Translations under genes and position numbers: made by a program
Assembly (NCBI GenBank): GCA_050692985.1
Contig: JBOGVZ010000066.1
Location: 9,885-73,884, forward strand
DNA length: 64,000 bases
Direction: 5' to 3'
Source: Actinomycetota bacterium
Lineage (GTDB): Bacteria > Actinomycetota > UBA4738 > CALAEC01
Shown: one piece after another, positions 4,097 to 63,717 of the stretch
Layout of the letters: each line of letters opens with the position of its first letter
Position numbering within the stretch: the first letter of the stretch is position 1
The notes under the pieces: generated by a model
What the model was told of the DNA's origin: nothing
Database searches by the model: none
The model's input: only the letters and a program-made list of their open reading frames with translations

Positions 4097-4990
4097 TCAG
4101 CCCCCAGCGGGCTCGGGGGCGTTGCTGGACCCGCGGTACTGCTGGATGAAGCCCTCGGCCACCGTGGCCACCTGGTCGACCTGGCCGGCCTCGACCTCCG
4201 GGCACGGCAGCAGCTTGTTCCACGCGGTGAACGTCACGCTGGCGCCGTCGGGTAGCGCCCGCGGGCCCTCCGCCGGGTACTGGACCAGCAACACCTTGCT
4301 CTCACGCTCGGTGATCTCGGTCAGCCGGTCGACCGCCTCCTGGGGAAGGGCACCGTCCCCGTCGGCCCGGTAGGACATGATCACGTAGGCGTGCTCGAGG
4401 TTGTGGACCAGGCTCGTCTCGAGCACCGGGTCCACCGGGTCGGGGAGGACGGGGGGACCCTGGTACGCGGCCGGGTTGTGCGGTCCCGACGTGGCCGGCG
4501 TGGAGTTGTACTCGGGGGGGACCTGCCCCGCCTGGAGGTGCTCCCGCCCCTGGACGCCCGGCTCCTCGATGGCGCCGTCTCCCTCCTCCCCGCATCCCAG
4601 GGCGGCGGCCGCCCGGGCCGCCGCCTGGTCCTCCAGGAGGAGCGGCCGGGTGTTCACGTACCAGATCGCCACGGCGACGCCGCCGATCATCCCCAGCACC
4701 AGCCCCCACCGCACCGCCCTCCGCAGGCGGCGGGCCCGGCGGGCACGCTTGATCCGCCGCTCCCGCTCGCGGCGGGCCTGCTCCTTCCGGGCCTGCCGGT
4801 TGCTGGTCGGTGCGGGGGCCTCGCGGCGTCGCGTGCGCCGGCCCTCGGGCCGCTCGGCCTCCGGCGCCCGCGTCTCCTCCCGCTCGGTCTCGAGCCGGGC
4901 CACGACCTCCTCCCGTGACCGGGCGCCCTGGGTGGGGCGGGCCTGGGGCCGGGACGGTCGCTTCCCCTTCTTGCGCTTCTTCTTCGCCAC
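4097..4990 (-). CDS. DUF3105-like membrane-anchored protein with a highly basic N-terminus
   Basis: KR-rich N-terminus, one TM helix (WGLVLGMIGGVAVAIWYV), then SGPH...LVHNLEHAYVIMSY, as I recall for DUF3105. Confidence 0.7.
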   Translation of the reverse strand: MAKKKRKKGKRPSRPQARPTQGARSREEVVARLETEREETRAPEAERPEGRRTRRREAPAPTSNRQARKEQARRERERRIKRARRARRLRRAVRWGLVLGMIGGVAVAIWYVNTRPLLLEDQAAARAAAALGCGEEGDGAIEEPGVQGREHLQAGQVPPEYNSTPATSGPHNPAAYQGPPVLPDPVDPVLETSLVHNLEHAYVIMSYRADGDGALPQEAVDRLTEITERESKVLLVQYPAEGPRALPDGASVTFTAWNKLLPCPEVEAGQVDQVATVAEGFIQQYRGSSNAPEPAGG

Positions 4991-5033
4991 GTGGTTCCTC
5001 GTTGGGTGGGCAGTAACTATATGAGGCCCGCTG

Positions 5034-6329
5034 TCACCTCGTCCGCAGGTGCTCGCCCGGGTCCAGCGGCGGGCGCGGCGGCGGCCCCCCGGTCGGGAGC
5101 GGCCCGGCGGCTACCGCCCCCATCGGGAGCCACTGCTCGTCGAGCCCCAGCGCCGCCCGAGACTCGTCCTGGCAGAACAGCGTGGACGACACCCAGCACG
5201 AGGCGTGGCCCTGCGCGTGGAGGGCCAGCATGAAGTTTTGCACGCCGGCCCCGGTGGCCAGCACGAACATGTCTCGCTCCGCCCGGCGCCGCCGCTCGTC
5301 GGGGTAGCGGTCCGCCGCGGCCAGCGACACGCTGGGGACGGCCAGCACCGGAGCCGCACCGAGCAGGGCGTCGGACCGGGCCACCCGCCGCTCGATCCCT
5401 TCTCGGTCGACGCCGTCCGCGCCCAGGTCCCGGGCCCATGCCTCGGCCATCGCCCCCAGCAGGCCTGCGCGGGCGGACCGCGACTCGACGATCGTCCATC
5501 GCCACGGCCGGGTACGGTGGCGCGAGCCGTGGGGGACCGGGGCGGTCAGGGCGGCCCGCACCGCCTCCACCAGGACGTGTCGGGGGACCGTCCCCGCTCC
5601 GAACTCGCGGACCGAGCGGCGGCCCGAGATGGCATCGAGCGGCGCGTATCGGAACAGGTCCTCTTCCGGCGGACGCACCAGCTCCGCCGCCGGGCCCGGC
5701 GGAGCCTCGGTGCGGACCCCCCGGACCACGGCCGCGGGGATGCCCTCGGCCTTGCCCATGACCAGGCCGGCCGCCGCGCACACCTCGTCGGCCAGGGCCA
5801 CGATCGTGGCGTCCAGGAGCCGGCCCGAGCGGTCGGGCGTTCCCCGGAGGTCGACGAGCGCCGGGAGGCCGGCGCAACCGACGGCCACGTTCACCAGCCC
5901 CCGTCGCCACGGACGCCCGAACGTGTCGGAGACGACCACCCCCACCTCGGCCCCCGCTCGTTCGCTCAGGCCCGACCGGATGCGCTCGGCGGACGCATCG
6001 GGGTCCTCGGGGAGCAGCGTCAGGAAGCCGGGTGCGACGTTGGACGCGTCCACGCCCGCGTTCGCGCACACGAATCCGTGCCGGGTCTCGGCGATGACCA
6101 GGTCTCCACGGCGAGCGACCACCCGGCGGCCCTCTCGAGCCACCCATGCTTGCCTGCCCGCACCCTCGGGGACCACCCGCCCCTCGGCCTTCGAGACCAC
6201 CTTCTGGGTGACGACGACCACGTCGCCGCCCCGGAGCCCGCCGGGGAGGTGGGCCGCGATCACCTCGGCCAGGTCGGTGCCCGCCTCGACCTCTGGGATC
6301 CCGGTGACCGGGAGAACCTCGAGGCTCAT
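5034..6329 (-). CDS. fbiB: Bifunctional F420 biosynthesis protein FbiB (CofE gamma-glutamyl ligase plus nitroreductase-like domain)
   Basis: ATG 6329 (MSLEVLPVTGIPEVEAGTDL...VVVTQKVVSKAEGR) overlaps the fbiA stop (ATGA). The C-terminal half is nitroreductase-like. The ORF upstream of this start is non-coding-looking. Confidence 0.85.
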   Translation of the reverse strand: MSLEVLPVTGIPEVEAGTDLAEVIAAHLPGGLRGGDVVVVTQKVVSKAEGRVVPEGAGRQAWVAREGRRVVARRGDLVIAETRHGFVCANAGVDASNVAPGFLTLLPEDPDASAERIRSGLSERAGAEVGVVVSDTFGRPWRRGLVNVAVGCAGLPALVDLRGTPDRSGRLLDATIVALADEVCAAAGLVMGKAEGIPAAVVRGVRTEAPPGPAAELVRPPEEDLFRYAPLDAISGRRSVREFGAGTVPRHVLVEAVRAALTAPVPHGSRHRTRPWRWTIVESRSARAGLLGAMAEAWARDLGADGVDREGIERRVARSDALLGAAPVLAVPSVSLAAADRYPDERRRRAERDMFVLATGAGVQNFMLALHAQGHASCWVSSTLFCQDESRAALGLDEQWLPMGAVAAGPLPTGGPPPRPPLDPGEHLRTR

Positions 6330-7309
6330 CCGGTCACGAGCTCGATCGCCGCCCGGGCCAGGCGCTCGGCCGCGTCGTCGTCGGTCATGATGGTGTCGAC
6401 GGCCGCCCCGCGGATCCCGAGCTCCTCCTCGATGCGGGGGACCAGGGCCCGGTCCCGCTCGTCGGCGATCCACCCATCCAGCAGGCCGCGATAGGCGCGC
6501 GACGCGCCCAGGGCGGAGACCTCCAGCCCGGCGGCCGGCATGAGCCGGTCGGCCATGCCCCGGAGGGGGGCCCCGGCCACGATGGGACTGATGCCGACCA
6601 CGGGCCTGCCCGCCGCGGCGTCGGCGATCCCCGGGACGGCCAGGATCGGTCCGATGCTGGCCACGGGGTTCGACGGGCAGATCACCACCGCGTCCGCGGC
6701 GCCGATCGCCTCCAGCACGCCGGGCGAGGGACGGGCCCGCTCGGCGCCGGCGTACCGGATCGCCTTGACCTCGTCGCGGGCCCCTCGGCCCACCCAGTAC
6801 TCCTGGAAGTGAAGGTCGAGCACCCGTCCGGCCTGGTCGACCGCATCGATGCGCGTCGTCACCGGGTCGTCCGACATCGGCAGCAGCGGTGGATCCACCC
6901 CGAACGCCCGACACGACGCCGCCGTGGCCTCCGACAGCGTCCGCCCGGAGGACAGCAGCCCGGTTCGCATGAGGTGCGTGGCCAGGTCCAGGTCACCGAG
7001 CCCGAACCACGCCTGGCCACCGAGCCGGCGGAGCTCCTCGAGCGTCCGGAACGACTCGGCCCCGCGGCCCCACCCGCGGTCGCGATCGGCCACGCCGGCC
7101 AGCCAGTACATCACCGAATCCAGGTCGGGCGAGACGTGGAGGCCGTGGAGGACCAGGTCGTCGCCGGTGTTGACGACGACCGACACGTCGGATGGCGGCA
7201 CGGTGCGCACCAGCCCGCGCAAGAACTTTCCCGCTCCGACACCGCCCGCCAGCGCAACGACGTTCACGTCCGAAGCGTATTCGCTATTGCTCATCGAGGA
7301 GGCGGCCAC
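6326..7309 (-). CDS. fbiA: 2-phospho-L-lactate transferase (CofD/FbiA)
   Basis: VVALAGGVGAGKFLRGL...VVVNTGDD...HGLHVSPDLDSVMY are CofD hallmarks. Start is GTG 7309 or ATG 7294. Confidence 0.9.
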   Translation of the reverse strand: MAASSMSNSEYASDVNVVALAGGVGAGKFLRGLVRTVPPSDVSVVVNTGDDLVLHGLHVSPDLDSVMYWLAGVADRDRGWGRGAESFRTLEELRRLGGQAWFGLGDLDLATHLMRTGLLSSGRTLSEATAASCRAFGVDPPLLPMSDDPVTTRIDAVDQAGRVLDLHFQEYWVGRGARDEVKAIRYAGAERARPSPGVLEAIGAADAVVICPSNPVASIGPILAVPGIADAAAGRPVVGISPIVAGAPLRGMADRLMPAAGLEVSALGASRAYRGLLDGWIADERDRALVPRIEEELGIRGAAVDTIMTDDDAAERLARAAIELVTG

Positions 7310-7315
7310 TAGGGT
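7310..7315 (+). promoter_or_regulatory. Putative -10 box (TAGGGT), 7 nt upstream of the fbiC GTG (leaderless geometry)
   Basis: TAnnnT hexamer at 7310-7315, 7-nt spacer, GTG 7323. There is no Shine-Dalgarno sequence in the spacer. Confidence 0.3.
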
Positions 7316-7322
7316 CGAGCGT

Positions 7323-9794
7323 GTGAACGCGAACGATCACGCCATCCGTCGCGCGGTGAAGCGAGCCGCCGGTGGCAAGACGGTCTCCGTGGAGGAGGCC
7401 ACGGCACTGCTCGGAGCCCGGGGCGCCGCCCTGGCCGAGCTCTGCGCGGTGGCCTCGTCGCTGCGGGAGCTGGGACACGGCCGGACCATCTCCTACTCGC
7501 GGAAGGTGTTCGTTCCCCTGACGATGCTGTGTCGCGACGTGTGCCACTACTGCACCTTCGCCAAGCCGCCCCGGGACCTCCGTGAGCCGTTCCTCTCGCC
7601 GGAGGAGGTCGTGGCCATCGGCGACGCCGGGCGACGGGCGGGTTGCAAGGAGGCCCTGTTCACGCTGGGGGACCGGCCGGAGGATCGCTACCCGGTGGCC
7701 CGCCGGTGGCTCGTCGAGCGGGGCTACCACTCCACGCTCGACTACCTGCGGGCGGTCTCGATCAAGGTGGTCGAGGAGACCGGCCTGCTGCCGCACCTGA
7801 ACCCCGGGGTGATGACGTGGGAGGACATGGCCCGGCTGAAGCACGTGTCGGCGTCGATGGGGCTCATGCTCGAGCAGGCCACGGACCGGCTCACCGAGAA
7901 GGGGATGGCCCACCACGGCTCGCCCGACAAGGTCCCCGCCGTTCGGCTGCGGACGATCGAGGATGCCGGGCGGCTGTCGATCCCGTTCACCACCGGGATC
8001 CTGGTGGGGATCGGGGAGACGCTCCGGGAGCGGGCGGAGTCGCTGTTCGCCATCCGCGAGGTTCAGGGCCGGTACCACCACGTGCAGGAGGTCATCGTCC
8101 AGAACTTCCGGGCCAAGCCGGGGACGGCCATGGCCGGCGCACCGGAGCCCGAAGACGACGAGTTCCTGGCGGCGGTGGCCACGGCCCGGGTGGTCCTGGG
8201 TCCGAGGGTCAACCTCCAGGCTCCGCCGAACCTGTCGGATCCGCACTACCCGCGGCTGCTGGACGGCGGCATCAACGACTGGGGCGGGGTCTCCCCGGTC
8301 ACCCCCGACCACGTGAACCCGGAGGCTCCGTGGCCACGGCTCGAGGATCTCCGCCGGCGCACCGAGGAGAAGGGGTTCCGCCTCCGCGAGCGGCTGTGCG
8401 TCTATCCGGGGTTCGCCACTCGCCCCGACCCGTGGATCGCCGGGAAGATGCAGCGCCCGGTGGCGGCCCTCATCGGCGAGGGCGGCTTCGCCCGTGAGGG
8501 CCACACGCCCGAACCGGTGCCGTGGCAGGACCCGGACGTGCAATGGAAGCCGCGGACCACCGCGCTGACGTTCGCCAAGGTGAACGGCCACGGCCTCCGG
8601 CCCGATGGCGATGCGGTCTACGGGGACTGGGACGCGCTCGACGTCGAGGCGACGCGGACGTGGTCCACCAGGCGCCGCGACCCGGCCCGCATCAGCGCGG
8701 AGGTCAGGACGGCCCTGGCCAGGGCCGCCTCTCGCCGGCCCATCACCGACGAGCAGGCGCTGGCCCTGTTCGAGGCCGAGGGCCCGGACCTGGAGGCGTT
8801 GTGCCGGGTGGCCGACGACCTGCGGCGGGAGGCCGCGGGCGACGAGGTGACCTACGTGGTCAACCGCAACATCAACTTCACCAACGTGTGCTACACGGGG
8901 TGCCGGTTCTGCGCGTTCGCCCAGCGGGAGGTGGACCCGGCTTCCTACACGCTGACCCTCCAGGAGGTCGCGGACCGAGCGGAGGAAGCCCGGTCCTACG
9001 GGGCCACCGAGGTGTGCATGCAGGGCGGGCTTCACCCCAGCCTTCCCGGCGATTTCTACTTCCGGTTGCTGGACGCGGTGAAGGCACGGGTCCCCGAGAT
9101 GCACATCCACGCGTTCAGCCCCATGGAGGTTCTCAACGGATCCACCCGGCTGGGGATCTCGTTCCGGGAGTTCCTCCAGGAGTGTCGCCGGCTGGGACTG
9201 GGCTCGATCCCCGGCACCGCGGCGGAGATCCTCGACGACGACGTCCGGTGGGTGCTCACCAAGGGAAAGTTGCCCGCCGACACCTGGGAGGAGATCGTGT
9301 CCACCGCCCACGGCCTGGGGATCCCGTCCTCGTCCACGATCATGTACGGCCACGTGGACGCTCCGCCGCACTGGGTGGCCCACCTGCGGCGGCTGGCCGC
9401 TATCCAGGACCGGACCGGCGGCTTCACCGAGTTCGTGCCGCTCCCGTTCGTGCACCAGAACTCGCCGATCTACCTGGCCGGCAAGGCCCGCCCCGGGTCG
9501 ACCCACGAGGAGGACCGGCGGATGCATGCCGTGGCCCGGATCCTCCTCGAGGGGGCCATCCCCAACGTGCAGGTGTCGTGGGTGAAGCTCGGGCTCGATG
9601 CCAGCAAGGTGATGCTCGCCGGCGGAGCCAACGACCTCGGCGGCACGCTGATGGAGGAGACGATCTCCCGGATGGCCGGAGCGGAGTGGGGGATCCGCAA
9701 GGAACCGGAGGAGCTCGAGGGCGCGATCCGCGACATCGGGCGCACCCCGGTCCAGCGAACGACGACGTACGACCGCGTGCATCGGGTGTCGTGA
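7323..9794 (+). CDS. fbiC: FO synthase, fused CofG+CofH radical-SAM enzyme (FbiC)
   Basis: Two radical-SAM Cys motifs (CRDVCHYCTF and CYTGCRFCAF) in one polypeptide of about 823 aa. Divergent from fbiA. Start is inferred at GTG 7323; the listed ORF extends upstream across fbiA. Confidence 0.9.
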   Translation: MNANDHAIRRAVKRAAGGKTVSVEEATALLGARGAALAELCAVASSLRELGHGRTISYSRKVFVPLTMLCRDVCHYCTFAKPPRDLREPFLSPEEVVAIGDAGRRAGCKEALFTLGDRPEDRYPVARRWLVERGYHSTLDYLRAVSIKVVEETGLLPHLNPGVMTWEDMARLKHVSASMGLMLEQATDRLTEKGMAHHGSPDKVPAVRLRTIEDAGRLSIPFTTGILVGIGETLRERAESLFAIREVQGRYHHVQEVIVQNFRAKPGTAMAGAPEPEDDEFLAAVATARVVLGPRVNLQAPPNLSDPHYPRLLDGGINDWGGVSPVTPDHVNPEAPWPRLEDLRRRTEEKGFRLRERLCVYPGFATRPDPWIAGKMQRPVAALIGEGGFAREGHTPEPVPWQDPDVQWKPRTTALTFAKVNGHGLRPDGDAVYGDWDALDVEATRTWSTRRRDPARISAEVRTALARAASRRPITDEQALALFEAEGPDLEALCRVADDLRREAAGDEVTYVVNRNINFTNVCYTGCRFCAFAQREVDPASYTLTLQEVADRAEEARSYGATEVCMQGGLHPSLPGDFYFRLLDAVKARVPEMHIHAFSPMEVLNGSTRLGISFREFLQECRRLGLGSIPGTAAEILDDDVRWVLTKGKLPADTWEEIVSTAHGLGIPSSSTIMYGHVDAPPHWVAHLRRLAAIQDRTGGFTEFVPLPFVHQNSPIYLAGKARPGSTHEEDRRMHAVARILLEGAIPNVQVSWVKLGLDASKVMLAGGANDLGGTLMEETISRMAGAEWGIRKEPEELEGAIRDIGRTPVQRTTTYDRVHRVS

Positions 9795-9862
9795 TGCGCA
9801 AATACCCGATCACCTCGCCGACGGCGCTTCAAATGCTCCGGCAAAAAGTTCATGATTGGGAC

Positions 9863-9892
9863 TGGACAAGTGCACCGCCCTTCGTTCAGAAT
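9863..9892 (+). promoter_or_regulatory. Putative sigma-70-type promoter of whiB (TGGACA-N18-CAGAAT)
   Basis: Lies in the relatively AT-rich 127-nt region upstream of whiB, about 30 nt before the GGAGGG ribosome-binding site. Confidence 0.3.
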
Positions 9893-9921
9893 CACACCGA
9901 TGTAATTCGCTTGGAGGGCGG

Positions 9922-10149
9922 ATGCACCACGACACGCCGTGGCAGGAGTTGGCGAGATGCCGGGATTTCGACCCGGAGATCTTCTTCCCCGAGAAAGGTG
10001 GGTCCTCGCGCGAGGCCAAGCGAATCTGCGCCGACTGCGAGGTCCGGATCCAATGCCTGAACTACGCCCTGCGTCGAGATGAACGCTACGGGGTGTGGGG
10101 AGGCATGAGTGAGCGGGAACGGCGACGCCTGAAGCGGATGGCGTCCTGA
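9922..10149 (+). CDS. whiB: WhiB-family Fe-S transcription factor (WhiB/WhiB2-like by synteny)
   Basis: ATG 9922 is preceded by GGAGGG. The four Cys (C-x-CADCEVRIQC) and GVWGG motif followed by a basic tail are the WhiB signature. It sits next to fbiA/B and pmm, as whiB2 (Rv3260c) does. Confidence 0.9.
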   Translation: MHHDTPWQELARCRDFDPEIFFPEKGGSSREAKRICADCEVRIQCLNYALRRDERYGVWGGMSERERRRLKRMAS

Positions 10150-23799: not shown

Positions 23800-23819
23800 G
23801 ATGGATGTGGGCTCGCGCC

Positions 23820-24120
23820 TGGGTCTGTGGTTGCCCGGAGGAATGTCCTCCGGAAGTCGATGCCAGTCGCAGGCGAAACGACCCACGTAAGGCGACCGTT
23901 GGTTGCTGAGCATGGTGCGGCTTAGACGTAAGTCCTGCCGCGGCGGGGCCGGGCTACCCCGGCCCCGACCGAGAGAAGGTGCTAAGCCGTCCTTGGGACG
24001 GCGAACCCCTCAGCAGGCGAGTGTGGGGGCAAAGACCAGGTCAGCCAGGCGCGAGCCCATCTCCGCCGGCCCGTCGCCGCCCGGCGGCCCCGTGGGGCCC
24101 CGGCTCTCGGGTCCCCTCCC
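23820..24120 (+). ncRNA. Candidate structured ncRNA in the comF-hpf spacer (raiA-motif-like); boundaries approximate
   Basis: The 345-nt gap has no credible ORF. It contains several perfect hairpins (23835-23853, 23945-23966, 23986-24002 and two more before 24110). Its position matches what I recall for the raiA motif RNA. Confidence 0.4.
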
Positions 24121-24144
24121 GGCCATCCGACGGAAGGAGCCTGC

Positions 24145-24495
24145 ATGGACCTCGTGGTGAAGGGCAGGGGAGACCGCGTGTCCGGCCAGACCCGAGGGCG
24201 GGTCGAACGCAAGCTGGGACGGCTCTCCAGGCTCGACAGGCGCATCGCCCGGGTGGAGGTCGAGGTGATCCGCCAGCCCAGCCGACGCGTGGACGGTGGC
24301 CACCGCGTGGAGGCCTCCTGCCGCTCCTCCCGGCGGACGTTCCGGGCCTCGGCCACCGGCGCGGACGTCGACTCGGCCCTGGACCGGGTGGTCGAGCGCC
24401 TGGAGCGCCAGATCGCGCGGGAGCAAGACCGGAGGCGAAGCAGGATGCTGGATGGCGCGAACCGGATAAAATCGCGCCGACATGAACCCTCCTGA
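24145..24495 (+). CDS. hpf: Ribosome hibernation promoting factor / RaiA family (short form)
   Basis: GGAAGGAG ribosome-binding site, then MDLVVKGRGDRVSGQTRGRVERKLGRLSRL...VEVEV...: S30AE-type fold pattern. It has the comF-hpf-secA synteny seen at Rv3242c-Rv3240c. Confidence 0.85.
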   Translation: MDLVVKGRGDRVSGQTRGRVERKLGRLSRLDRRIARVEVEVIRQPSRRVDGGHRVEASCRSSRRTFRASATGADVDSALDRVVERLERQIAREQDRRRSRMLDGANRIKSRRHEPS

Positions 24496-24537
24496 CGCCA
24501 CCGCCCCCTCGGGCCCCCGGCGAGGGGGGCCCTGACC

Positions 24538-25227
24538 GTGGCCACCAAGAAGGATCGTCCCGCCTCGGACACCCTGCGCGTGCTGATCGCCGACGACCAT
24601 GCCCTGTTCCGGCGCGGCCTGGAGATGGTGCTGGAGAAGGAGCCGGACATCGAGGTCGTCGGCGAGGCCATCGATGGGGACCACGCGGTGGAGAAGGCCC
24701 AGGAGCTCATGCCCGACGTGGTCCTCATGGACGTCCGGATGCCCAAGAACAGCGGGATCGAGGCCACCCAGCGGATCAAGGAGCTCCTCCCGCACGTGAA
24801 GATCATGATGCTGACGATCAGCGACGAGGAGGCCGATCTCTACGAGTCGATCAAGGCCGGCGCTTCCGGGTACCTGCTGAAGGAGATCTCCACCGAAGAG
24901 GTGGCGGAAGCGATCCGATCGATCGTGGCCGGGCACTCCCGCATCTCCCCGGCCATGGCCTCCAAGCTGCTCACCGAGTTCGCGGCCATGACGAAGCGCA
25001 CGGACGAGCGCCAGGAGCTCCCCCCGCCGCGCCTGACCGACCGGGAGCTCGAGGTGCTGAAGCTGGTGGCCCAGGGTCTGAACAACCGCGACATCGCCAA
25101 GCAGCTCTTCATCTCCGAGAACACCGTGAAGAACCACATCCGCAACATCTTGGAGAAGCTCCAGCTCCACTCCCGGATGGAGGCCGTGATCTACGCGGTC
25201 AGGCAGAACATCCTGGAGATCAAGTAG
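24538..25227 (+). CDS. NarL/LuxR-family response regulator
   Basis: Receiver domain ([12 protein letters not shown]...VVLMDVRMP...) plus a C-terminal LuxR helix-turn-helix ([39 protein letters not shown]). Confidence 0.9.
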
Positions 25228-40881: not shown

Positions 40882-41349
40882 GTGGCCGCGGGGGAGCGCG
40901 CCGTGGCCACGAACCGCCGGGCCCGCCACGACTACCACATCGAGGAGAGCTTCGAGGCGGGCATCGTGCTGACGGGCTCGGAGGTGAAGTCGCTCCGAGG
41001 TGGGCGGGCCTCGATCGCCGAGGCCTTCGCCCGGGTGACGGATGGCGAGGTGTGGCTGGAGAACATGCACATCCCCCCGTACCTCCAGGGCCAGACCCGC
41101 GACTACGATCCTCGTCGCCCCCGGAAGCTCCTGCTCCACCGCAGGGAGATCGAGCGGCTCATCGGCAAGACCCGGGAACGGGGGCTCACGCTGGTGCCGC
41201 TCCGCCTGTACTTCACCCGCGGCCTGGCCAAGGTGCAGCTCGGGTTGGGGCGGGGGAAGCGCGAGTTCGAGAAGCGCCAGGCCAAACTGGAGCAGGTCCA
41301 CCGGCGCGAGGCCGAGCGCTCCTTCGCCCACCGCCAGCGCGGCGGCTGA
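40882..41349 (+). CDS. smpB: SsrA-binding protein SmpB
   Basis: ...NRRARHDYHIEESFEAGIVLTGSEVKSLR...HIPPY...RRPRKLLLHRREI... Confidence 0.95.
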   Translation: MAAGERAVATNRRARHDYHIEESFEAGIVLTGSEVKSLRGGRASIAEAFARVTDGEVWLENMHIPPYLQGQTRDYDPRRPRKLLLHRREIERLIGKTRERGLTLVPLRLYFTRGLAKVQLGLGRGKREFEKRQAKLEQVHRREAERSFAHRQRGG

Positions 41350-42216: not shown

Positions 42217-42564
42217 GGGGCTGACTTGGCTTCGACTCGGGTGGTTGCCACCCGGGGGAAGCGGGCCGAGGTCCCCGGAGTCCTCGTTAAAGAGCCGGGA
42301 TCAACACAAGCGCCGACGATTACGCGCTCGCTGCCTAGTCACTAGGTAGCCGTCCGCCGAGGTTCGCCTGTGGCCTCGGGTCGGGCGTCACTAGCAGGCT
42401 CACCAGGCCCGGTGCGCCTCGGGCCCCGCCTGGGACATCGAACCGAGGCTGGTCCGGCGGTCCTCCGCCTGTGGGAAGCCGCCGGACGAGATCTGCCACA
42501 GGCTGCGCCCGGAGAAGACCCGGATGGTCACCCGAGGACGCGGGTTCGATCCCCGCCAGCTCCA
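42217..42564 (+). ncRNA. ssrA: tmRNA (SsrA)
   Basis: 5' GGGGCUGACUUGGCUUCGAC..., 3' ...GGACGCGGGUUCGAUCCCCGCCAGCUCCA (T-arm plus a 7-bp acceptor stem containing a G-U pair). The internal tag ORF reads ...INTSADDYALAA, then TAG 42336-42338. It lies just downstream of smpB. Confidence 0.9.
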
Positions 42565-42576
42565 CTTCACGCCAGC

Positions 42577-47659: not shown

Positions 47660-48505
47660 CTACGCCAGGTTCAGCTCCATGCCCTCGTAGGCCAGGATCG
47701 GCTCGGCCCCGGAGCCCTTCCACAGCGATCGGGCATGCCTCAGGATCTCCTCGAGCTGGTCGTCGGAGTGCGTGGGGTCGTGGTGGAACATCACCAGCTG
47801 CCGGACCTCGGAGATCTCGGCGAACGTCACCACATGGACGGTGCTGGAGTGGCCCCACCCGATCCGCTGCCGGTACTCCTCCTCCGTGTACTGGGCGTCG
47901 TGGAGGAGGACGTCGGCCCCCTGGGCCACCGCGTGGCCGGAGATCCACTCGGGCTCCACGCCCCGCAGGTCCACGCCCAGGGCCGGCTCGTGGTCGGGGA
48001 CGAACGACAGCACGTGGCCGTCCTCCTCGATCCGGTAGCCCACCGTGGGGCCCCGGTGAGAGACGGGATCGGCGCTGACCCGGGCCGTGCCGACCTTCCA
48101 GTCGTCGTCGGGGACGTCGTGGAACTCCGGGTGCGAGGGGATGTCCGAGAGGTGCACGGGGAACAGCGGTGGCGAGAGGTACTGGGCGATCCTCCGCTCC
48201 AGGCTCCGCAGCGGGGACGGCGGCCCCCAGATGTGGAGGTCCACGTCCGGGCTCCACAGCGGGCCGAAGAACCCCAGGCCTTCCAGGTGGTCGAGGTGCA
48301 GGTGGGTCAGGAACACGTGGATGGTCCGGGGCAGCTCCCCCATGAGGGTGTTGCCCAGCGGCCGGATGCCGGTCCCGGCGTCGAGGATGATGAGGCTGCC
48401 GTCGTCCATGCGGAGCTCGACGCAGGAGGTGTTGCCGCCGTAGCGGACGGTCTCGGGGCCCGGGGATGCGAGCGACCCCCGGCACCCCCACACCCGGGCC
48501 AGCAC
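47660..48505 (-). CDS. MBL-fold metallo-hydrolase
   Basis: ...ILDAGTG...FLTHLHLDHLEGL... (HxHxDH) plus downstream His/Asp ligands. The AAGGAG ribosome-binding site lies inside the end of the PAS gene. Confidence 0.8.
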   Translation of the reverse strand: MLARVWGCRGSLASPGPETVRYGGNTSCVELRMDDGSLIILDAGTGIRPLGNTLMGELPRTIHVFLTHLHLDHLEGLGFFGPLWSPDVDLHIWGPPSPLRSLERRIAQYLSPPLFPVHLSDIPSHPEFHDVPDDDWKVGTARVSADPVSHRGPTVGYRIEEDGHVLSFVPDHEPALGVDLRGVEPEWISGHAVAQGADVLLHDAQYTEEEYRQRIGWGHSSTVHVVTFAEISEVRQLVMFHHDPTHSDDQLEEILRHARSLWKGSGAEPILAYEGMELNLA

Positions 48506-48509
48506 GGGG

Positions 48510-48911
48510 CTACTCCTTCTCTTCCCAGAAGATGGCCACCGCTCCGACGAACTCGTCCGACCGGGCGAACAGCGGGAAGGCCGTGACCCCGATGCGGCGC
48601 TTCACGCCGTCGAGCCCCACGATCCGCATGAAGCGGTGCGCCGGCTTGCGCTCGGCCAACGCCACGGACAGCGGCATGTCCTCCGAGGCGAAGGGCTCTC
48701 CGGTGTCGGGGTCCTCGGGCGAGAACATGGCCCCGCTCCACTCCTCGGCGCTCAGCTCCCCGGCCTCCGCGTACGTCTGCCCCAGGATCTCCTCGGCCGG
48801 CTCGTTGTAGTACACCAGCGTCCCGCCCGGGTCCACCAGGAACATCGGGGTGGCCACCGAGGAGGCCAGGCCCCGGGCCAGGATGTGAACGAGGTTGTGC
48901 TCCTCGGACAT
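48510..48911 (-). CDS. Stand-alone PAS-domain protein
   Basis: 133 aa: ...PMFLVDPGGTLVYYNEPAEEILGQTY...GVKRRIGVTAFPLF...GAVAIFWE. This is a PAS fold pattern with no output domain. Confidence 0.75.
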   Translation of the reverse strand: MSEEHNLVHILARGLASSVATPMFLVDPGGTLVYYNEPAEEILGQTYAEAGELSAEEWSGAMFSPEDPDTGEPFASEDMPLSVALAERKPAHRFMRIVGLDGVKRRIGVTAFPLFARSDEFVGAVAIFWEEKE

Positions 48912-48916
48912 GGCCC

Positions 48917-49492
48917 TCAGGAGGAGGACCCCTCGTCACCGCCCTTGACGACCGACTCGATGACGTCGCGAGGGATCTGGGCGGCCGAGGAAAGGCCCCG
49001 CTTCACCGCCTCCGCGGCGTCCTTGGAGATCTCTCCCGCGGAGGTGAGGGCCTGCTCCGCGGCGCTGCGGGCCACCTCGCCCACGTCCTTGCCGACACGG
49101 CCGGCGGCCTCGATGGCCCCCTCGACCGCGCCAACGGCCGTCCCTGTGATGTCACCGCCCACCTCTGCCGCCGTTTGGATGGCCGTCCGCACGGCGTGCC
49201 GTGTCCCCTCGAGGACGTCGCCCCCCACCTCGGCCACGGCCTGCACGGCGCCGGAGACCACGCCCTTGGCTCCCTGGGCCAGCTCGACCCCGGCCTCCTG
49301 CGTTCCCCGGACCGCACCGCGGACCGTGTCGGTGACCACGCCGACGGCTGCCCCCGCTATCTCGCCGGTGCTCCGCAGGGCCCCGGTGACCAGGTCCGTG
49401 GCCGTCGCCCGGACGCTGTCAACGATGTCCCCGGCTCCCCGGACCACGCCGACCACGGCGTTCTTCGCCTTGTCGACCAGCCCCTCTGCCAT
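48917..49492 (-). CDS. Ala/Gly/Val-rich protein built from 22-residue (11+11) amphipathic repeats (LEA/apolipoprotein-like); function unknown
   Basis: GGAGG sits 8 nt before ATG 49492. Repeat units: AEVGGDVLEGTRHAVRTAIQTA / AEVGGDITGTAVGAVEGAIEAA / GRVGKDVGEVARSAAEQALTSA / GEISKDAAEAVKRGLSSAAQIP. Confidence 0.65.
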   Translation of the reverse strand: MAEGLVDKAKNAVVGVVRGAGDIVDSVRATATDLVTGALRSTGEIAGAAVGVVTDTVRGAVRGTQEAGVELAQGAKGVVSGAVQAVAEVGGDVLEGTRHAVRTAIQTAAEVGGDITGTAVGAVEGAIEAAGRVGKDVGEVARSAAEQALTSAGEISKDAAEAVKRGLSSAAQIPRDVIESVVKGGDEGSSS

Positions 49493-49571
49493 CTGCCTCA
49501 CCTCCGTACGGTCGCTTGACGGTCACTATAGGGCTCCGGGGTTGCCCCGTCACCCCTCCGGGGGTGGGCGC

Positions 49572-49577
49572 TATGCT
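49572..49577 (+). promoter_or_regulatory. Putative -10 box (TATGCT), 6 nt upstream of the selD ATG (leaderless)
   Basis: TATGCT-cggtcc-ATG(49584), the same architecture as at 16568-16582. Confidence 0.4.
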
Positions 49578-49583
49578 CGGTCC

Positions 49584-50642
49584 ATGCGCGATGAGGTTCG
49601 GCTCACGAGGTACAGCCACGGGGCCGGCTGAGCCTGCAAGCTCAGTCCGCAGGACCTGGCCCAGGTGCTGGGCCAGCTGGGCTCCACCGAATATCCGCCG
49701 GAGGTCCTGGTCTCCCAGGAGACCCGGGACGACGCGGCCGTGTACCGGCTGCCGGGCGGCGGCGTGCTCGTTCAGACGGTGGACTTCTTCACGCCGATCG
49801 TGGACGACCCCTACGACTGGGGCCGGATCGCCGCGGCCAACGCCTTCAGCGACGTGTACGCGATGGGGGCCCGTCCGGCCCTGGCCCTGAACCTGGTGGC
49901 CTGGCCGATCCAGGAGCTCCCGGCCGAGCTGCTGGCCCGGGTCCTCGAGGGGGGCGCCAAGGTGGCGTCCGAGGCCGGGGCGGCCATCGTGGGCGGGCAC
50001 AGCATCCACGACCCCGAGCCCAAGTACGGCATGGCCGTGACCGGCTTCGCCCAGGAGGATCACCTGCTGCGCAACTCCACGGCCCCGGCGGGGGCCCGGC
50101 TGTTCCTGACCAAGCCGCTGGGGCTGGGCATCATCACCACGGGGATCAAGCGGGGGAGCGCGTCGCCGGAACAGGCCGCCCGGGCGGTCGAGGTGATGAC
50201 CGCGCTCAACGCCCCGGCGGCCGAGGCCGCGGTGGAGGCCGGAGCCGAGGGGGCCACCGACGTCACCGGCTTCGGCCTGCTCGGCCACCTGCACGCCATG
50301 CTGGAGGCCTCCGGCGTCTCGGCGGAGGTCGACGCCGGCGTCGTGCCGGTGCTCCCGGGCACGCTGGACCTGGCCGAGGACGATGTGATCCCCGGGGGGA
50401 CGCGCTCGAACCTGACGTTCGTCGATCCCCACGTGGAGTGGGGCGATCTCTCCGGGCCCGAGCGGCTGGTCCTGGCGGACGCGCAGACCTCGGGAGGCCT
50501 GATGGTGGCCGCCTCCTCCGATCGGGGGGACCGGCTGGCCGAGGCCTTCCGGGGCCGGGGGGTGGGCGCGGCCGAGATCGGCCTCACCGTCCCGGGCCCG
50601 CCGGGCCGCATCCTCGTGCGAGGCCGGGTTCGGGACGGGTAA
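49584..50642 (+). CDS. selD: Selenide, water dikinase SelD with in-frame UGA (selenocysteine) at codon 16
   Basis: MRDEVRLTRYSHGAG-[TGA 49629-49631]-ACKLSPQDLAQVLG... in a single frame. E. coli SelD has ...YSHGAGCGCKISP here. The rest is the AIR-synthase-like fold (DDAAVY..., DFFTPIVDDPY, GGHSI). Confidence 0.85.
49656..49676 (+). promoter_or_regulatory. Candidate SECIS hairpin for the selD UGA
   Basis: Perfect 9-bp stem cuggcccag / cugggccag with a GUG loop, starting 27 nt after the first base of the UGA codon (24 nt after its last base). Confidence 0.45.
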
Positions 50643-50674: not shown

Positions 50675-51105
50675 ATGATCGAGCTGCCCATGCCGTTGTT
50701 CGAAGAGATCGTGGCCCTCGCCGTGGCCGAGCTGCCGAACGAGGCCTGCGGCGTGGTGGCGGGGGCCGACGGCCGGGCCGCCCGCGTGTACCCCATGCGA
50801 AACGCCGAGGCCAGCCCGGTCGTGTACCGGTTCGACGAGCGAGAGCAGCTCGAGGTGTTCACGAAGGTCGAGGCCAGGGGCTGGGAGCTGCTCGGCTTCT
50901 TCCACTCCCACACCCATACCCAGGCGTACCCCTCTCAGACGGACCGGGACCGGGCGCACTGGCGGGACCCCACCACGGGGAGGGAGACCCCCATGTACCC
51001 CGACACGGGCTACCTGATCCTCTCCCTCCAGGACCGGGAGCAGCCGGTGATCCGGGCGTTCCGGTTCGAGGACGGGGAGCCGGTGGAGCAGGAGGTTCGG
51101 ATCAC

Positions 51106-51109
<4 letters not shown>
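50675..51109 (+). CDS. mec: JAMM/MPN+ metalloprotease (Mec-like CysO-cysteine peptidase)
   Basis: E...HSHTHTQAYPSQTD is the JAMM motif (HxHx7Sx2D). The gene sits at the head of the moeB-cysO-cysM block, as Rv1334 does. Confidence 0.85.
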
Positions 51110-54045
<2,936 letters not shown>

Positions 54046-54055
<10 letters not shown>

Positions 54056-54807
54056 TCGTCCTGGGCGCCCACGGCACCTGGCCCGCCGCGGGCGGGGCCA
54101 CCAGCGGCCACCTGGTCCGCCACGACGGCCACGGCGTCCTCCTCGACCTGGGCAGCGGGACCGTGGCCAACCTCCAGCGGCACGGCGGGCTGTTCGACGT
54201 GGACGCGGTGGTCATCTCCCACTCGCACCCGGACCACGTGACCGACCTGTACACCTACTACATGGCCCGTCGCTTCTCGCCGCAGTGCCCCCCGCCCATC
54301 CCCCTGTACCTGGCGCCCAAGGTGCTCGACCGCGTGGAGCCGCTCCTCTCCGACGACAGCGGGGACATGAAGCTGGCCCATGCCTTCGACATCCACGTGC
54401 TGGACCCGGGCGCCGGCGTGGAGGTGGGGCCGCTCTCGATCCGAACCGAGGAGATGGCCCACAGCGTGCCGACGATCGGCGTCCGCGTGGAGGCGGGTGG
54501 CGCCGCCCTGGCCTACACGGCGGATACCGGCCCGACGGGGGCGGCGACCCGGATGGCCCGGGACGTGGACCTGCTGGTGGCCGAGGCCACCTGGCAGGAG
54601 GACGGGGACGACGATCGGCCCCCGATCCATCTCACGGGCAAGGAGGCCGGCGAGCTGGCCCGCGACGCGGGGGCGGGCCGCCTGGTCCTGACCCACATCC
54701 GTCCCTACCTGGACCGGGACCTCACCAGGGAGGAGGCCGCCGGAGCCTTCGACGGCGAGATCCTCCTGGCCGAGGAAGGGCTGCGGCTCGAGGTCGGCGG
54801 ACGGTGA
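54046..54807 (+). CDS. MBL-fold metallo-hydrolase (Rv1339-like position)
   Basis: GTG 54046. Motifs ...LLDLGSG...VVISHSHPDHVTDL... are present, in the murI-MBL-rph order of M. tuberculosis. Confidence 0.8.
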
Positions 54808-55520
54808 GGCCGGACGGGCGGGACCCGGCGGAGCTGCGACCGATCCGCTACGAGATCGGGTACCTCGACTGGGCCGAGGGCTCGGTGCTGTTCGAGATGG
54901 GCCGTACCCGGATCCTGTGCGCGGCGTCCTACGAGGCCAGGGTGCCGCCGTTCCTCCAGGGCTCCGGCAAGGGCTGGGTGACGGCGGAGTACTCGATGCT
55001 GCCCCGCTCCACGGAGGTCCGCACTCCCCGGGAGTCTGTTCGCGGCAGGCCGTCGGGGCGAACCCAGGAGATCCAGCGCCTGATCGGCAGGTCCCTCCGT
55101 GCGGTGACCCGCATGGAGGCGCTCAAGGACAGCACGCTGTGGATCGATTGCGACGTCCTCCAGGCCGACGGCGGCACCCGGACCGCGGCCATCACCGGCG
55201 GGTACATCGCCCTGGCCCTGGCGGTGCGGACGCTCAAGGAGCGGGGTGTGGTGGACGGGGATGTGCTGGCGGACTCGGTGGCGGCGGTGAGCGCGGGGAT
55301 GGTCGAGGGGGACCGGGTCCTGGACCTGTCCTACGAGGAGGACGTCCGGGCCGACGTGGACTTCAACGTGGTGATGACGGGCTCGGGCAGCCTGGTGGAG
55401 GTCCAGGGCACCGCGGAGGGGGAGCCCTTCTCCCGCGAGGACCTCGACTCGATGGTGTCGCTGGCCGCCCGGGGCATCGAGCGGCTCACCCAGGTCCAGC
55501 GGGAGGCCGCCGGGACATGA
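54804..55520 (+). CDS. rph: Ribonuclease PH
   Basis: GTG 54804 (GTGA overlap). ...RPDGRDPAELRPI...GSVLFEMGRTRILCAAS...GWVTAEYSMLPRST..RE...GRTQEIQRLIGRSLR... Confidence 0.95.
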   Translation: MRPDGRDPAELRPIRYEIGYLDWAEGSVLFEMGRTRILCAASYEARVPPFLQGSGKGWVTAEYSMLPRSTEVRTPRESVRGRPSGRTQEIQRLIGRSLRAVTRMEALKDSTLWIDCDVLQADGGTRTAAITGGYIALALAVRTLKERGVVDGDVLADSVAAVSAGMVEGDRVLDLSYEEDVRADVDFNVVMTGSGSLVEVQGTAEGEPFSREDLDSMVSLAARGIERLTQVQREAAGT

Positions 55521-55533
55521 GGCCGCCGGGCTC

Positions 55534-56130
55534 GTGAGCTTCCCCGAGCGGCTGGTGGTGGCCACGCGGAACCCGGGCAAGGTGCGGGAGATCCTGGCGA
55601 TCTGCCGCGACTGGCCGGTGGGCTGGCTCACCCACGAGGATGCGACCTGGCCCGACGTCCCGGAGACGGGTGCCACCTACGTCGACAACGCCCTGCTGAA
55701 GGCCTTGGCGGTGGCCGGGGCCGCCGGCGAGGCCGCCCTGGCCGAGGACTCCGGGATCGAGGTGGATGCCCTGGGAGGACGGCCGGGGCCCCGATCGGCC
55801 CGGTTCGCCGGGGAAGGGGCCTCCGACCGGGAGAACCTCGAGGCGCTCCTGCGGGCGCTGGAGGGCGTGCCCCCCGAGCGGCGCACCGCCCGGTACCGGG
55901 CGGTGGCCGTGGTGGCCTGGCCGGACGGCCGCGAGGTGATGGCCGAGGGCACCTGCGAGGGGCGCCTGCGCACCGAGCCGGCCGGGACCGGAGGCTTCGG
56001 GTACGACCCCATCTTCCAGCCGGCGGGCCACGAGCGGACCATGGCCCAGCTTGACCCCGAGGAGAAGGATGCCCTCAGCCACCGGGGCGGGGCCCTGAGG
56101 GCCCTCCGGGCCCGCCTGGCGGGGGACTGA
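55534..56130 (+). CDS. rdgB: Non-canonical purine NTP pyrophosphatase (RdgB/HAM1)
   Basis: ...LVVATRNPGKVREI..., EDSGIEVDALGGRPG..SARF, GFGYDPIF, SHRG. Confidence 0.9.
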   Translation: MSFPERLVVATRNPGKVREILAICRDWPVGWLTHEDATWPDVPETGATYVDNALLKALAVAGAAGEAALAEDSGIEVDALGGRPGPRSARFAGEGASDRENLEALLRALEGVPPERRTARYRAVAVVAWPDGREVMAEGTCEGRLRTEPAGTGGFGYDPIFQPAGHERTMAQLDPEEKDALSHRGGALRALRARLAGD

Positions 56131-62469: not shown

Positions 62470-63717
62470 ATGACCCGACGAGCGAGCCTGCTCTGGGTCA
62501 TCGCTGTCAGCACCGTGCTCCTGTCGGTGCCGCCGGCCAGCGCGTCCACCACCTGGAACATCGGCGACGTGTTCGTGGGGGTGGCCAATGGGTCGTACAA
62601 CGTGTACACGAACGACGGGACGTTCAAGGAAACGATCAGCGACGGCTCGGAGGGGGGGTTCACCACGGGGTGCTCGTTCAACCCCGACCTGAGCCAGCTG
62701 TACACGACCAGCTTCTCGGCGGGCACGATGCCCGTCTACCAGAACGCCTCACCCCACCCCATCGTGGACACCATCACCCCACCGAGAGGCACCCCGGAGT
62801 CGGTGGTGTTCGCCGCGAACGGGCACTTCTTCGTCGGCGGGCCCTTCAACCCGCAGATCGACGAGTACGACGCGGCGCACACCCTCGTCGACTCCGACAC
62901 GGTGACCGTGGCCGACGGGACCGGAGGACCGGACTGGATCGACCTCTCCGCTGACCAGGCCACGATGTTCTACGCCACCGAGGGCCGGATCATCGGTCGC
63001 TTCAACGTGGCCACGGACACGGATCTCTCGGACTTCGCCACGCTCCCGGGGACCGGCCAAGCGTTCGCCCTCCGTCTCCTCCCGCCGGGCGACGGGAGCG
63101 GGGGCCTGCTGGTGGCCGACCGGGTCGAGATCAAGCGGCTGGATGGGTTCGGGACCGTCGTCCAGACCTACGACGTCGCCGGCGAAGACAACTGGTTCGC
63201 CCTGAATCTCGACCCCAACGGGACGTCCTTCTGGTCGGGGGACTTCGGCACCAACAACTTCTACCGGTTCAACATCGCCACCGGCGCCCTGGAGCTGGGC
63301 CCCGTCGCCAGCGGGGGAGCGTTGTTCGGGATCTGCGTCAAGGGGGAGCCCACCGGTGCCCTTCCGCCTCCAGGCGCGGACTGCCCCGGTCTGCAGACGA
63401 AGGGCAACCTGTTCATCGGCACCCCCGGGCCCGATGACATGAAGGGGACCCTCCAGGTCGACACCATGTGCGGGCTGGGCGGGAACGACTCAATCTTCGC
63501 CGGCCACGGCAACGACCAGCTTGCCGGCAACAAGGGCAATGACACCCTGCTCGGTAGCCGGGGTGGCGACCTCATCAAGGGCGGTCCGGGCAAGGACCTC
63601 CTGGTGGGGGGCCGGGGCAACGACACCCTCAACGGGGGGCCCGGCTTCGACGTCTGCAAGGGCGGACCCGGGAAGGACACGTTCAAGAACTGCGAGGTCA
63701 TCAAGGACAAGAAGTAG
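62470..63717 (+). CDS. Secreted protein: beta-rich N-terminal domain plus C-terminal RTX-type calcium-binding repeats
   Basis: Signal peptide (LLWVIAVSTVLLSVPPASA). The C-terminus reads ...GGNDSIFAGHGNDQLAGNKGNDTLLGSRGGDLIKGGPGKDLLVGGRGNDTLNGGPGFDVCKGGPGKDTFKNCEVI. Confidence 0.7.
   Translation: MTRRASLLWVIAVSTVLLSVPPASASTTWNIGDVFVGVANGSYNVYTNDGTFKETISDGSEGGFTTGCSFNPDLSQLYTTSFSAGTMPVYQNASPHPIVDTITPPRGTPESVVFAANGHFFVGGPFNPQIDEYDAAHTLVDSDTVTVADGTGGPDWIDLSADQATMFYATEGRIIGRFNVATDTDLSDFATLPGTGQAFALRLLPPGDGSGGLLVADRVEIKRLDGFGTVVQTYDVAGEDNWFALNLDPNGTSFWSGDFGTNNFYRFNIATGALELGPVASGGALFGICVKGEPTGALPPPGADCPGLQTKGNLFIGTPGPDDMKGTLQVDTMCGLGGNDSIFAGHGNDQLAGNKGNDTLLGSRGGDLIKGGPGKDLLVGGRGNDTLNGGPGFDVCKGGPGKDTFKNCEVIKDKK

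Follow-up and report, generated by a model that had tools for sequence, protein, structure and literature searches.

The question raised by this locus is whether a gene for selenophosphate synthetase, selD, which is interrupted by an in-frame TGA near its 5' end, encodes a selenoprotein or is cut short by an ordinary stop codon. The gene lies on the forward strand of a 64,000-nucleotide stretch of contig JBOGVZ010000066.1 from an Actinomycetota bacterium, which was analysed as a whole and is called the window below; positions are those of this stretch unless stated otherwise. A preliminary description of the window had proposed that the TGA is read as selenocysteine (Sec), with a hairpin in the position of a selenocysteine insertion sequence (SECIS), and every coordinate that it gave for the ATG, the TGA, the stop codon and the hairpin proved to be exact. 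On the evidence set out here, selD is very probably a selenoprotein gene, whose product would be a 352-residue selenophosphate synthetase with selenocysteine at codon 16, specified by UGA together with a SECIS hairpin. The features on which the argument turns are the following:

49572..49577, + strand: -10-like box TATGCT, 6 nt before the selD ATG, with no Shine-Dalgarno sequence between the two
49584..50642, + strand: full selD coding sequence, 352 codons plus TAA (50640-50642), with the presumed Sec (UGA) as codon 16 and Lys as codon 19
49584..49628, + strand: first 15 codons, MRDEVRLTRYSHGAG, with which the glycine-rich catalytic loop begins; left out by automatic gene calls
49629..49631, + strand: in-frame UGA, presumably read as selenocysteine, aligned with Cys17 of E. 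coli SelD
49656..49676, + strand: bacterial SECIS-type hairpin CUGGCCCAG-GUG-CUGGGCCAG, a 9-bp stem with the apical loop GUG at 49665-49667
49665..50642, + strand: truncated public gene call P0001, 325 aa (100% identity, 92% coverage), whose start is falsely placed at the GTG of the SECIS loop

From the ATG at 49584-49586 the frame reads MRDEVRLTRYSHGAG, reaches the TGA at 49629-49631, continues as ACKLSPQDLAQVLGQLG... and stays open up to the TAA at 50640-50642. The 337 codons downstream of the TGA are intact, with a third-position G+C of 0.95 in a window whose DNA has a G+C content of 72%. In profile searches, for which Sec was written as C, the read-through product matched the SelD equivalog model TIGR00476 with 389.8 bits (cut-off 125), a match that covers product residues 6-313 and model positions 1-309 of 311, and NF002098 with 373.2 bits (cut-off 299); for the 325-aa product the Pfam domains PF00586 and PF02769 (AIRS and AIRS_C) are precomputed. 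E. coli SelD (PDB 3u0o) aligned with residues 3-346 at E = 1.3e-91, so that the earlier claim of a complete SelD by read-through is borne out both by the family model and by an end-to-end alignment. At the site of the UGA 3u0o reads ...LTQYSHGAGCGCKISP, and its YSHGAG-C-GCK(ISP) aligns column for column with YSHGAG-U-ACK of the product: the Cys of the E. coli enzyme, Cys17, stands in the UGA column, as had been claimed, and the Lys three residues on is also kept. We take Cys17 and Lys20 of E. coli SelD to have an essential catalytic role. The catalytic loop of SelD is present only if the UGA is read through. Hence, the UGA occupies the catalytic Cys/Sec position and the read-through product is a complete SelD, for which ATP-dependent synthesis of selenophosphate from selenide is the predicted activity.

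A scan of one genome per species of the Genome Taxonomy Database (GTDB) yielded 80 selD loci, in 73 of which the HGAG-x-xCK motif could be located. The codon at the catalytic site is TGA in 22 of these and TGC or TGT in the other 51. TGA is also found in the closest relative, L085, from an independent forest-soil metagenome assembly in the European Nucleotide Archive (ENA), which shares 82% amino acid identity with the window gene and has an identical hairpin, so that 23 other selD genes share the codon (22 from GTDB species genomes and one from a soil-metagenome contig). The TGA-type genes span three phyla and stem from Actinomycetota, Anaeromyxobacter and Gemmatimonadota. Nearest to the window are L016 (77% amino acid identity), L001, L002, L004, L006, L015 and L072. 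Further cases are an Acidimicrobiia metagenome-assembled genome (MAG; L069), MAGs of Gemmatimonadota and several genomes of Anaeromyxobacter, from isolates as well as MAGs. The genomes closest to that of the window are soil MAGs that bear the label Actinomycetota or uncultured Actinomycetes. The presence of TGA at the same codon in independent assemblies excludes a sequencing error or a private nonsense mutation. As TGA is at the same time the stop codon of 32 of the 45 genes called on the contig, the genetic code must be standard and any recoding local.

The hairpin consists of 9 perfect Watson-Crick pairs with a predicted free energy of -16.3 kcal/mol and begins 27 nt after the U of the UGA; counted from the end of that codon, the stem begins 24 nt and the apical loop 33 nt downstream. 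In the bacterial SECIS (bSECIS) model (PMC13188914, Figure 2 legend) the loop has 3-9 nt and the upper stem 4-16 bp, the first or second base of the loop is a G with, as a rule, G or U after it, the loop lies 16-37 nt from the UGA, and the free energy is -7.5 kcal/mol or lower. With its 3-nt loop GUG (G, then U), 9 bp, 33 nt and -16.3 kcal/mol the window hairpin agrees with all four published constraints, and the perfect 9-bp stem, GUG loop and 27-nt distance of the preliminary description are upheld. On the + strand of the 64 kb, perfect 9-bp hairpins with loops of 3-9 nt have 19 start positions at about 12 distinct sites, and because they are so rare one would fall by chance within the 22 nt that the SECIS spacing allows after any one TGA with a probability of about 0.004, by our own arithmetic. 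Searched against Rfam with the gathering threshold and again with E values up to 1, the whole window gave no family matching the hairpin; the only matches were raiA, tmRNA and tRNA-Leu.

It is the comparison with relatives that, at the level of sequence, settles the question of the hairpin and provides the decisive evidence. We aligned the hairpin region of 23 Sec-type sequences (the window and the 22 genome loci). Measured outward from a 3-nt loop, the stem has 7-9 bp in 22 of the 23; the remaining gene, L064, has 6 bp and a 5-nt loop with G as its second base. The same measure applied to the 51 Cys-type genes gives a mean of 0.9 bp and a maximum of 5 bp, and the co-occurrence of UGA and hairpin is thus strict. 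The named structure pairs 88.9% of the cells in the 23 Sec-type sequences, a share that drops to 33-42% once the 3' partners are shifted by 1-3 columns, and RNAalifold finds the identical helix unaided. At pair 33:43, 15 sequences have G-C, 7 have C-G and 1 has U-A; at pair 31:45, 21 have G-C, 1 has A-U and 1 has U-G. Two pairs have changed on both sides, amounting to 10 cells, a figure matched by none of 500 shuffles. The compensatory changes join the synonymous third position of an Ala codon (GCC/GCG/GCU) with the first base of the facing Gly, Arg or Ser codon (GGC/CGC/AGC), a pattern that points to a constraint on the RNA rather than on the protein. The peptide encoded by the stem, LAQVLG(Q/R), is fixed in the Sec-type genes only; Cys-type orthologues have DLESLL, ELLSVL, DLRTVL and the like at the same locus. 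The Anaeromyxobacter selD genes have a hairpin of the same form.

Two further structures near the UGA were considered. A small 5-bp stem at 49629-49644, which encloses the UGA itself, was rejected as a functional element: the conserved codons U-A-C-K-L are enough to produce it, and Anaeromyxobacter has not kept it. RNAalifold also proposed another helix, weaker than the SECIS hairpin and lying between it and the UGA (columns 11-16 with 24-29 of alignment A1, window 49639-49657), whose pair 16:24 is G-C in 9 and C-G in 8 sequences. This helix is strong in Anaeromyxobacter (GAUCCGC/GCGGAUC) but weak in the window, for which a mini-hairpin of 4 bp (GUCC/GGAC) is predicted instead; the helix may represent a lower SECIS helix.

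The start of the gene was examined in the same set of relatives. The preliminary description had allowed for a SelD that begins downstream of the TGA, with the 15 upstream codons unconserved; alignment with orthologues gave the opposite picture, the N-terminal peptide being kept in all Sec-type and Cys-type relatives and the ATG being invariant. Over the 45 nt from ATG to TGA the seven Sec-type relatives differ from the window at 4-11 positions, mostly third codon positions (8 of 8 differences in L002, 7 of 9 in L004 and 7 of 9 in L072), and over the 30 nt before the ATG they differ at 13-23 positions, so that conservation stops just upstream of the ATG. Judged from this pattern of substitution, the ATG and the 15 codons are evidently under purifying selection. 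The sole conserved element upstream is a TATNCT box, present at the same spacing in 10 of 11 aligned relatives: it stands 6-8 nt before the ATG in L085, L016, L002, L004, L006, L015, L072, L086 and L087, and in L001 it precedes an ATG four codons further upstream. A scan of the + strand for the sigma-70 consensus, which also demands a -35 hexamer, reported no site. A geometry of this kind is familiar from leaderless actinobacterial transcripts, and the closeness of the box to the ATG, together with the lack of a Shine-Dalgarno sequence, suggests that the selD mRNA is probably leaderless.

The proposed course of expression would then be as follows. Translation would start at ATG 49584, on a leaderless transcript from the TATGCT box; UGA codon 16 would direct the insertion of selenocysteine, with SelB binding to the hairpin and inserting the residue as in the established bacterial mechanism; and selA, selB and selC would be expected elsewhere in this genome. 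The points that weigh against this reading concern the machinery, the selenoproteome and the hairpin. Searches with ARAGORN, with Rfam (to E 1) and with the E. coli SelA and SelB proteins as tblastn queries brought up no selA, selB or tRNA-Sec gene in the 75 kb of contig that includes the window, and no second TGA-interrupted gene was found in the window or in the flanks of the Sec-type relatives when TGA-joined open reading frames (ORFs) with coding-like G+C on both sides were sought. The folding energy of the 72 nt at 49629-49700 is ordinary when set against shuffles (z = -0.88, with 39 of 200 shuffles as stable), an unremarkable outcome that we attribute to the high G+C content of the DNA. 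Four of the 9 stem pairs are invariant, and the covariation counts come from related sequences that are phylogenetically non-independent.

These points have to be weighed along with three other explanations. One is that the TGA is a true stop, owing to a pseudogene or a sequencing error, and that the real product is the 325-aa protein from GTG 49665. Gene callers yield exactly this model, TGA is the commonest stop on the contig, and the missing Sec machinery in the 75 kb fits it as well; but a product starting at residue 28 would have no loop with the catalytic Cys/Sec and Lys, 23 other independent assemblies carry TGA at the same codon, the ATG and the 15 codons upstream bear the marks of purifying selection, and the GTG itself is not conserved at the loop, so that this explanation is extremely unlikely. 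For the last reason the idea that GTG 49665 is a conserved start within the gene was also rejected: among the 23 Sec-type genes the codon in the loop is GTC 13 times, GTG 8 times and GTT twice.

The other two explanations accept the read-through or the stem and give it a different meaning. The UGA might be recoded to a residue other than Sec, for instance to Cys, if it were delivered by a tRNA(Cys) that resembles tRNA-Sec and has a UCA anticodon, or through near-cognate read-through aided by the hairpin. Natural variants of Sec recoding have been described, and most orthologues have Cys at the site and are active enzymes. Against this, the hairpin matches the SelB-dependent SECIS model and is common to Anaeromyxobacter, where SelD counts as a selenoprotein, and a costly signal kept just to obtain Cys would be odd, since single-base changes from TGA to TGC or TGT have apparently recurred in the clade; we regard such recoding as very unlikely. 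Alternatively, the stem might be a by-product of the conserved peptide LAQVLGQ, or some other regulatory structure, and not a SECIS element at all, a view favoured by its location inside the coding sequence, where codons limit the variation, and by the invariant pairs just mentioned. The peptide, however, varies freely in the syntenic Cys-type orthologues, which have no stem there, and the protein therefore does not need LAQVLGQ; moreover, synonymous sites covary with their pairing partners, and the hairpin decays once TGA has become TGC or TGT. That the hairpin is something other than a SECIS element is, on this balance, exceedingly improbable.

We return to the reading of selD as a selenoprotein gene and to the machinery that it calls for. 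The stretch of contig covered by the searches is 20109-95135 of the 95,135-bp record CDIABC010000039.1 (GCA_975305695.1), in which the window occupies 29557-93556; it adds 9.4 kb upstream, with cell-wall polysaccharide genes, and 1.6 kb downstream, with a gene for a HemolysinCabind protein. As a positive control, the same searches recovered selA, selB and tRNA-Sec beside the Cys-type selD of L061, L067 and L078. Across the 80 related loci ARAGORN and tblastn with SelA and SelB gave matches only near Cys-type selD genes (L061, L067, L077 and L078) and none near a Sec-type selD; only a few kb separate the three genes from a Cys-type selD in a Thermoleophilaceae MAG, an uncultured Actinomycetes MAG and a Streptomyces sp., and in L077 (Actinoallomurus) a tRNA-Sec lies near selD. 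From these four loci it follows that the Sec machinery exists in the phylum; in the lineage of the window no clustering of this machinery with selD is seen. A loss of the machinery from this genome is unlikely, because UGA, flanks and hairpin have been kept together across many species, and the gene would imply that this uncultured lineage retains the full Sec-decoding apparatus. The suggestion that other TGA-interrupted genes be sought came to nothing in the window and in the flanks of the Sec-type relatives, all TGA-joined ORF candidates from these loci being rejected as ordinary gene boundaries.

The prediction that an automatic caller would truncate the gene holds: the mechanical ORF list breaks the selD frame into 48636..49631 and 49665..50642, and the public call P0001 begins at Val-28 (GTG 49665) and is without the catalytic N-terminal loop. 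This loop is missing in 47 of the 120 best database homologues (P0001-P0120), and 44 of these 47 begin at the (V/M)LGQ/LGE position, that is, at the codon of the SECIS loop, where a GTG or ATG is mistaken for the start. Hence, Sec-type selD is systematically mis-annotated across the truncated entries, the TGA having been confirmed at the DNA level for P0001 (window) and P0002 (locus L085) and separately for the 22 genome loci, with the other truncated entries outside this set. The practical value of the case is chiefly here, as corrected gene models matter to surveys of selenoproteomes and to inferences about the use of selenium by soil Actinomycetota.

The gene neighborhood bears on the relation between the Sec and Cys forms. 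In the window selD is followed and preceded by these genes:

50690-51109, + strand: JAB/Mec, first gene of a block downstream of selD that extends over 50690-56130
51106-51960, + strand: ThiF/MoeZ
51964-52239, + strand: ThiS/CysO
52293-53225, + strand: CysM
53216-54055, + strand: MurI
54046-54807, + strand: metallo-beta-lactamase
54804-55520, + strand: RNase PH
55534-56130, + strand: Ham1/RdgB, last gene of the block
48917-49492, - strand: 191-aa protein with no Pfam match, first of three genes divergent from selD (47660-49492)
48510-48911, - strand: 133-aa PAS protein
47660-48505, - strand: 281-aa metallo-beta-lactamase-fold protein

The order from selD through JAB/Mec, ThiF/MoeZ, ThiS/CysO, CysM, MurI, metallo-beta-lactamase and RNase PH to Ham1/RdgB is common to nearly all the Sec- and Cys-type actinobacterial loci, which makes the two forms alleles of a single orthologous gene. 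The block, with its sulfur-carrier cysteine pathway, resembles the mec-cysO-cysM...murI-rph region of Mycobacterium tuberculosis. In the Anaeromyxobacter loci RNase PH and Ham1 also lie a few kb downstream of selD. The divergent trio adjoins selD in L016 and L002, with calls of the same size and family in L085, and in L086 and L087 the PAS gene and a 188-aa gene adjoin it.

In a neighbour-joining tree without support values the Sec-type genes are paraphyletic at the base of the clade and the Cys-type groups are nested among them. The nearest Cys-type genes, L086 and L087 (72-73% identity), have a hairpin with one mismatch (-7.5 and -11.9 kcal/mol), and in more distant Cys-type genes the hairpin is lost. 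As would be expected after a conversion of Sec to Cys, the hairpins of L086 and L087 look like relic SECIS elements, the direction of the change being read solely from this unsupported tree. The occurrence of both Sec and Cys forms at a single syntenic locus makes a clean example of Sec-to-Cys turnover. We tentatively suggest, as a scenario that is possible though open to doubt, that Sec-containing SelD is ancestral in the clade, that it was converted to the Cys form several times at this one locus with the relics decayed to various degrees, and also that SelD may be the sole or nearly the sole selenoprotein for which the Sec machinery is kept. If this were true, it would amount to a self-referential loop in aerobic soil bacteria, since SelD supplies the selenium donor and could not itself be made without it, and the clade would offer a natural series for dating the loss of Sec and the decay of SECIS elements.

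Other features of the window lie at a distance from selD. A raiA RNA motif lies at 23814-24053 (+) (Rfam RF03072, 148.5 bits, full length). It is overlapped by a frame at 23986-24495 that ends in TGA and continues in the same frame into an ORF at 24496-25227; this TGA was considered as a Sec codon and judged to be a gene boundary instead. The tmRNA gene (42217-42567, +; tag ADDYALAA), just 3' of smpB (40903-41349, +), is ordinary. A cluster for F420 biosynthesis at 4097-10149 comprises an FbiB-like F420 ligase/nitroreductase (5034-6329, -), CofD (6326-7294, -) and an FbiC-like radical-SAM protein of the CofH type (7323-9794, +), flanked by a DUF3105 gene and whiB (9922-10149, +), and fits an actinobacterial origin. 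Neighbouring genes at 62470-63717 (+) and, in L088, at 4316-5893 (-) encode secreted proteins with HemolysinCabind (RTX-type calcium-binding) repeats. An identical 415-aa HemolysinCabind protein is encoded on a second long contig (50-200 kb), the same organism having seemingly been assembled twice in public data.

When the window gene is set beside known systems, E. coli SelD (3u0o) matches over its full length, with a YSHGAG-x-xCK motif identical but for the catalytic residue; it differs in that its Cys17 belongs to the TGC/TGT class and needs no recoding signal, whereas the window has UGA. The SelD of Aquifex aeolicus (PDB 2yye, 2zod and 2zau) is homologous but more distant (E = 7e-58), and in these structures the UGA column holds the Cys of SSGCAAK; we assume that the native enzyme has Sec at that position and that the crystallised forms are variants. 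The SECIS of E. coli fdhF is a SelB-binding hairpin just 3' of the UGA, within the coding sequence, with a bulged U and a short fixed distance. The window hairpin resembles it in following the UGA soon within the coding sequence and in having G then U in the apical loop, but its stem is without a bulged U and its distance is longer than that of fdhF, and it therefore conforms to the general bSECIS model only and not to the fdhF type.

The closest parallels are the Sec-containing SelD proteins already on record. SelD is the second most widespread family of prokaryotic selenoproteins, with a catalytic Sec in a flexible N-terminal loop (PMC13188914), and FdhA and SelD have been named the two most widespread bacterial selenoproteins (PMC1794560). 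Sec-type SelD from Anaeromyxobacter dehalogenans, Geobacter, Clostridia and Rubrobacter xylanophilus (Zhang et al. 2006, PMC1794560) is the same enzyme, and its UGA stands at the same position in the loop. The earlier statement that such variants are known in other bacteria is thus correct, SelD being listed among the 11 selenoproteins of A. dehalogenans (PMC1794560). Rubrobacter xylanophilus appears in the table of selenoprotein losses in the same study, with SelD as the family lost in sister organisms, an entry that implies a Sec-type SelD in an actinobacterium. Sec-to-Cys conversions that leave a relic SECIS have likewise been described for SelD and FdhA (PMC1794560, Figure 4), a likeness that is seen in the relatives L086 and L087 and not in the window. 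The Anaeromyxobacter hairpin has the same form, the same distance and a GUN loop, and differs in its stem (CUGGCCCAG/CUGGGCCAG in the window versus CUGGCGCAG/CUGCGCC). What is new is one more Sec-type selD, publicly mis-annotated, from an uncultured soil actinobacterium; the kind is well known, the case is ordinary, and what is understood of the mechanism is left unchanged by it. From the known Sec-containing SelD proteins it is set apart by its host, an uncultured member of the soil Actinomycetota, and by its setting, in which selD heads a mec-moeZ-cysO-cysM-murI-rph-rdgB block.

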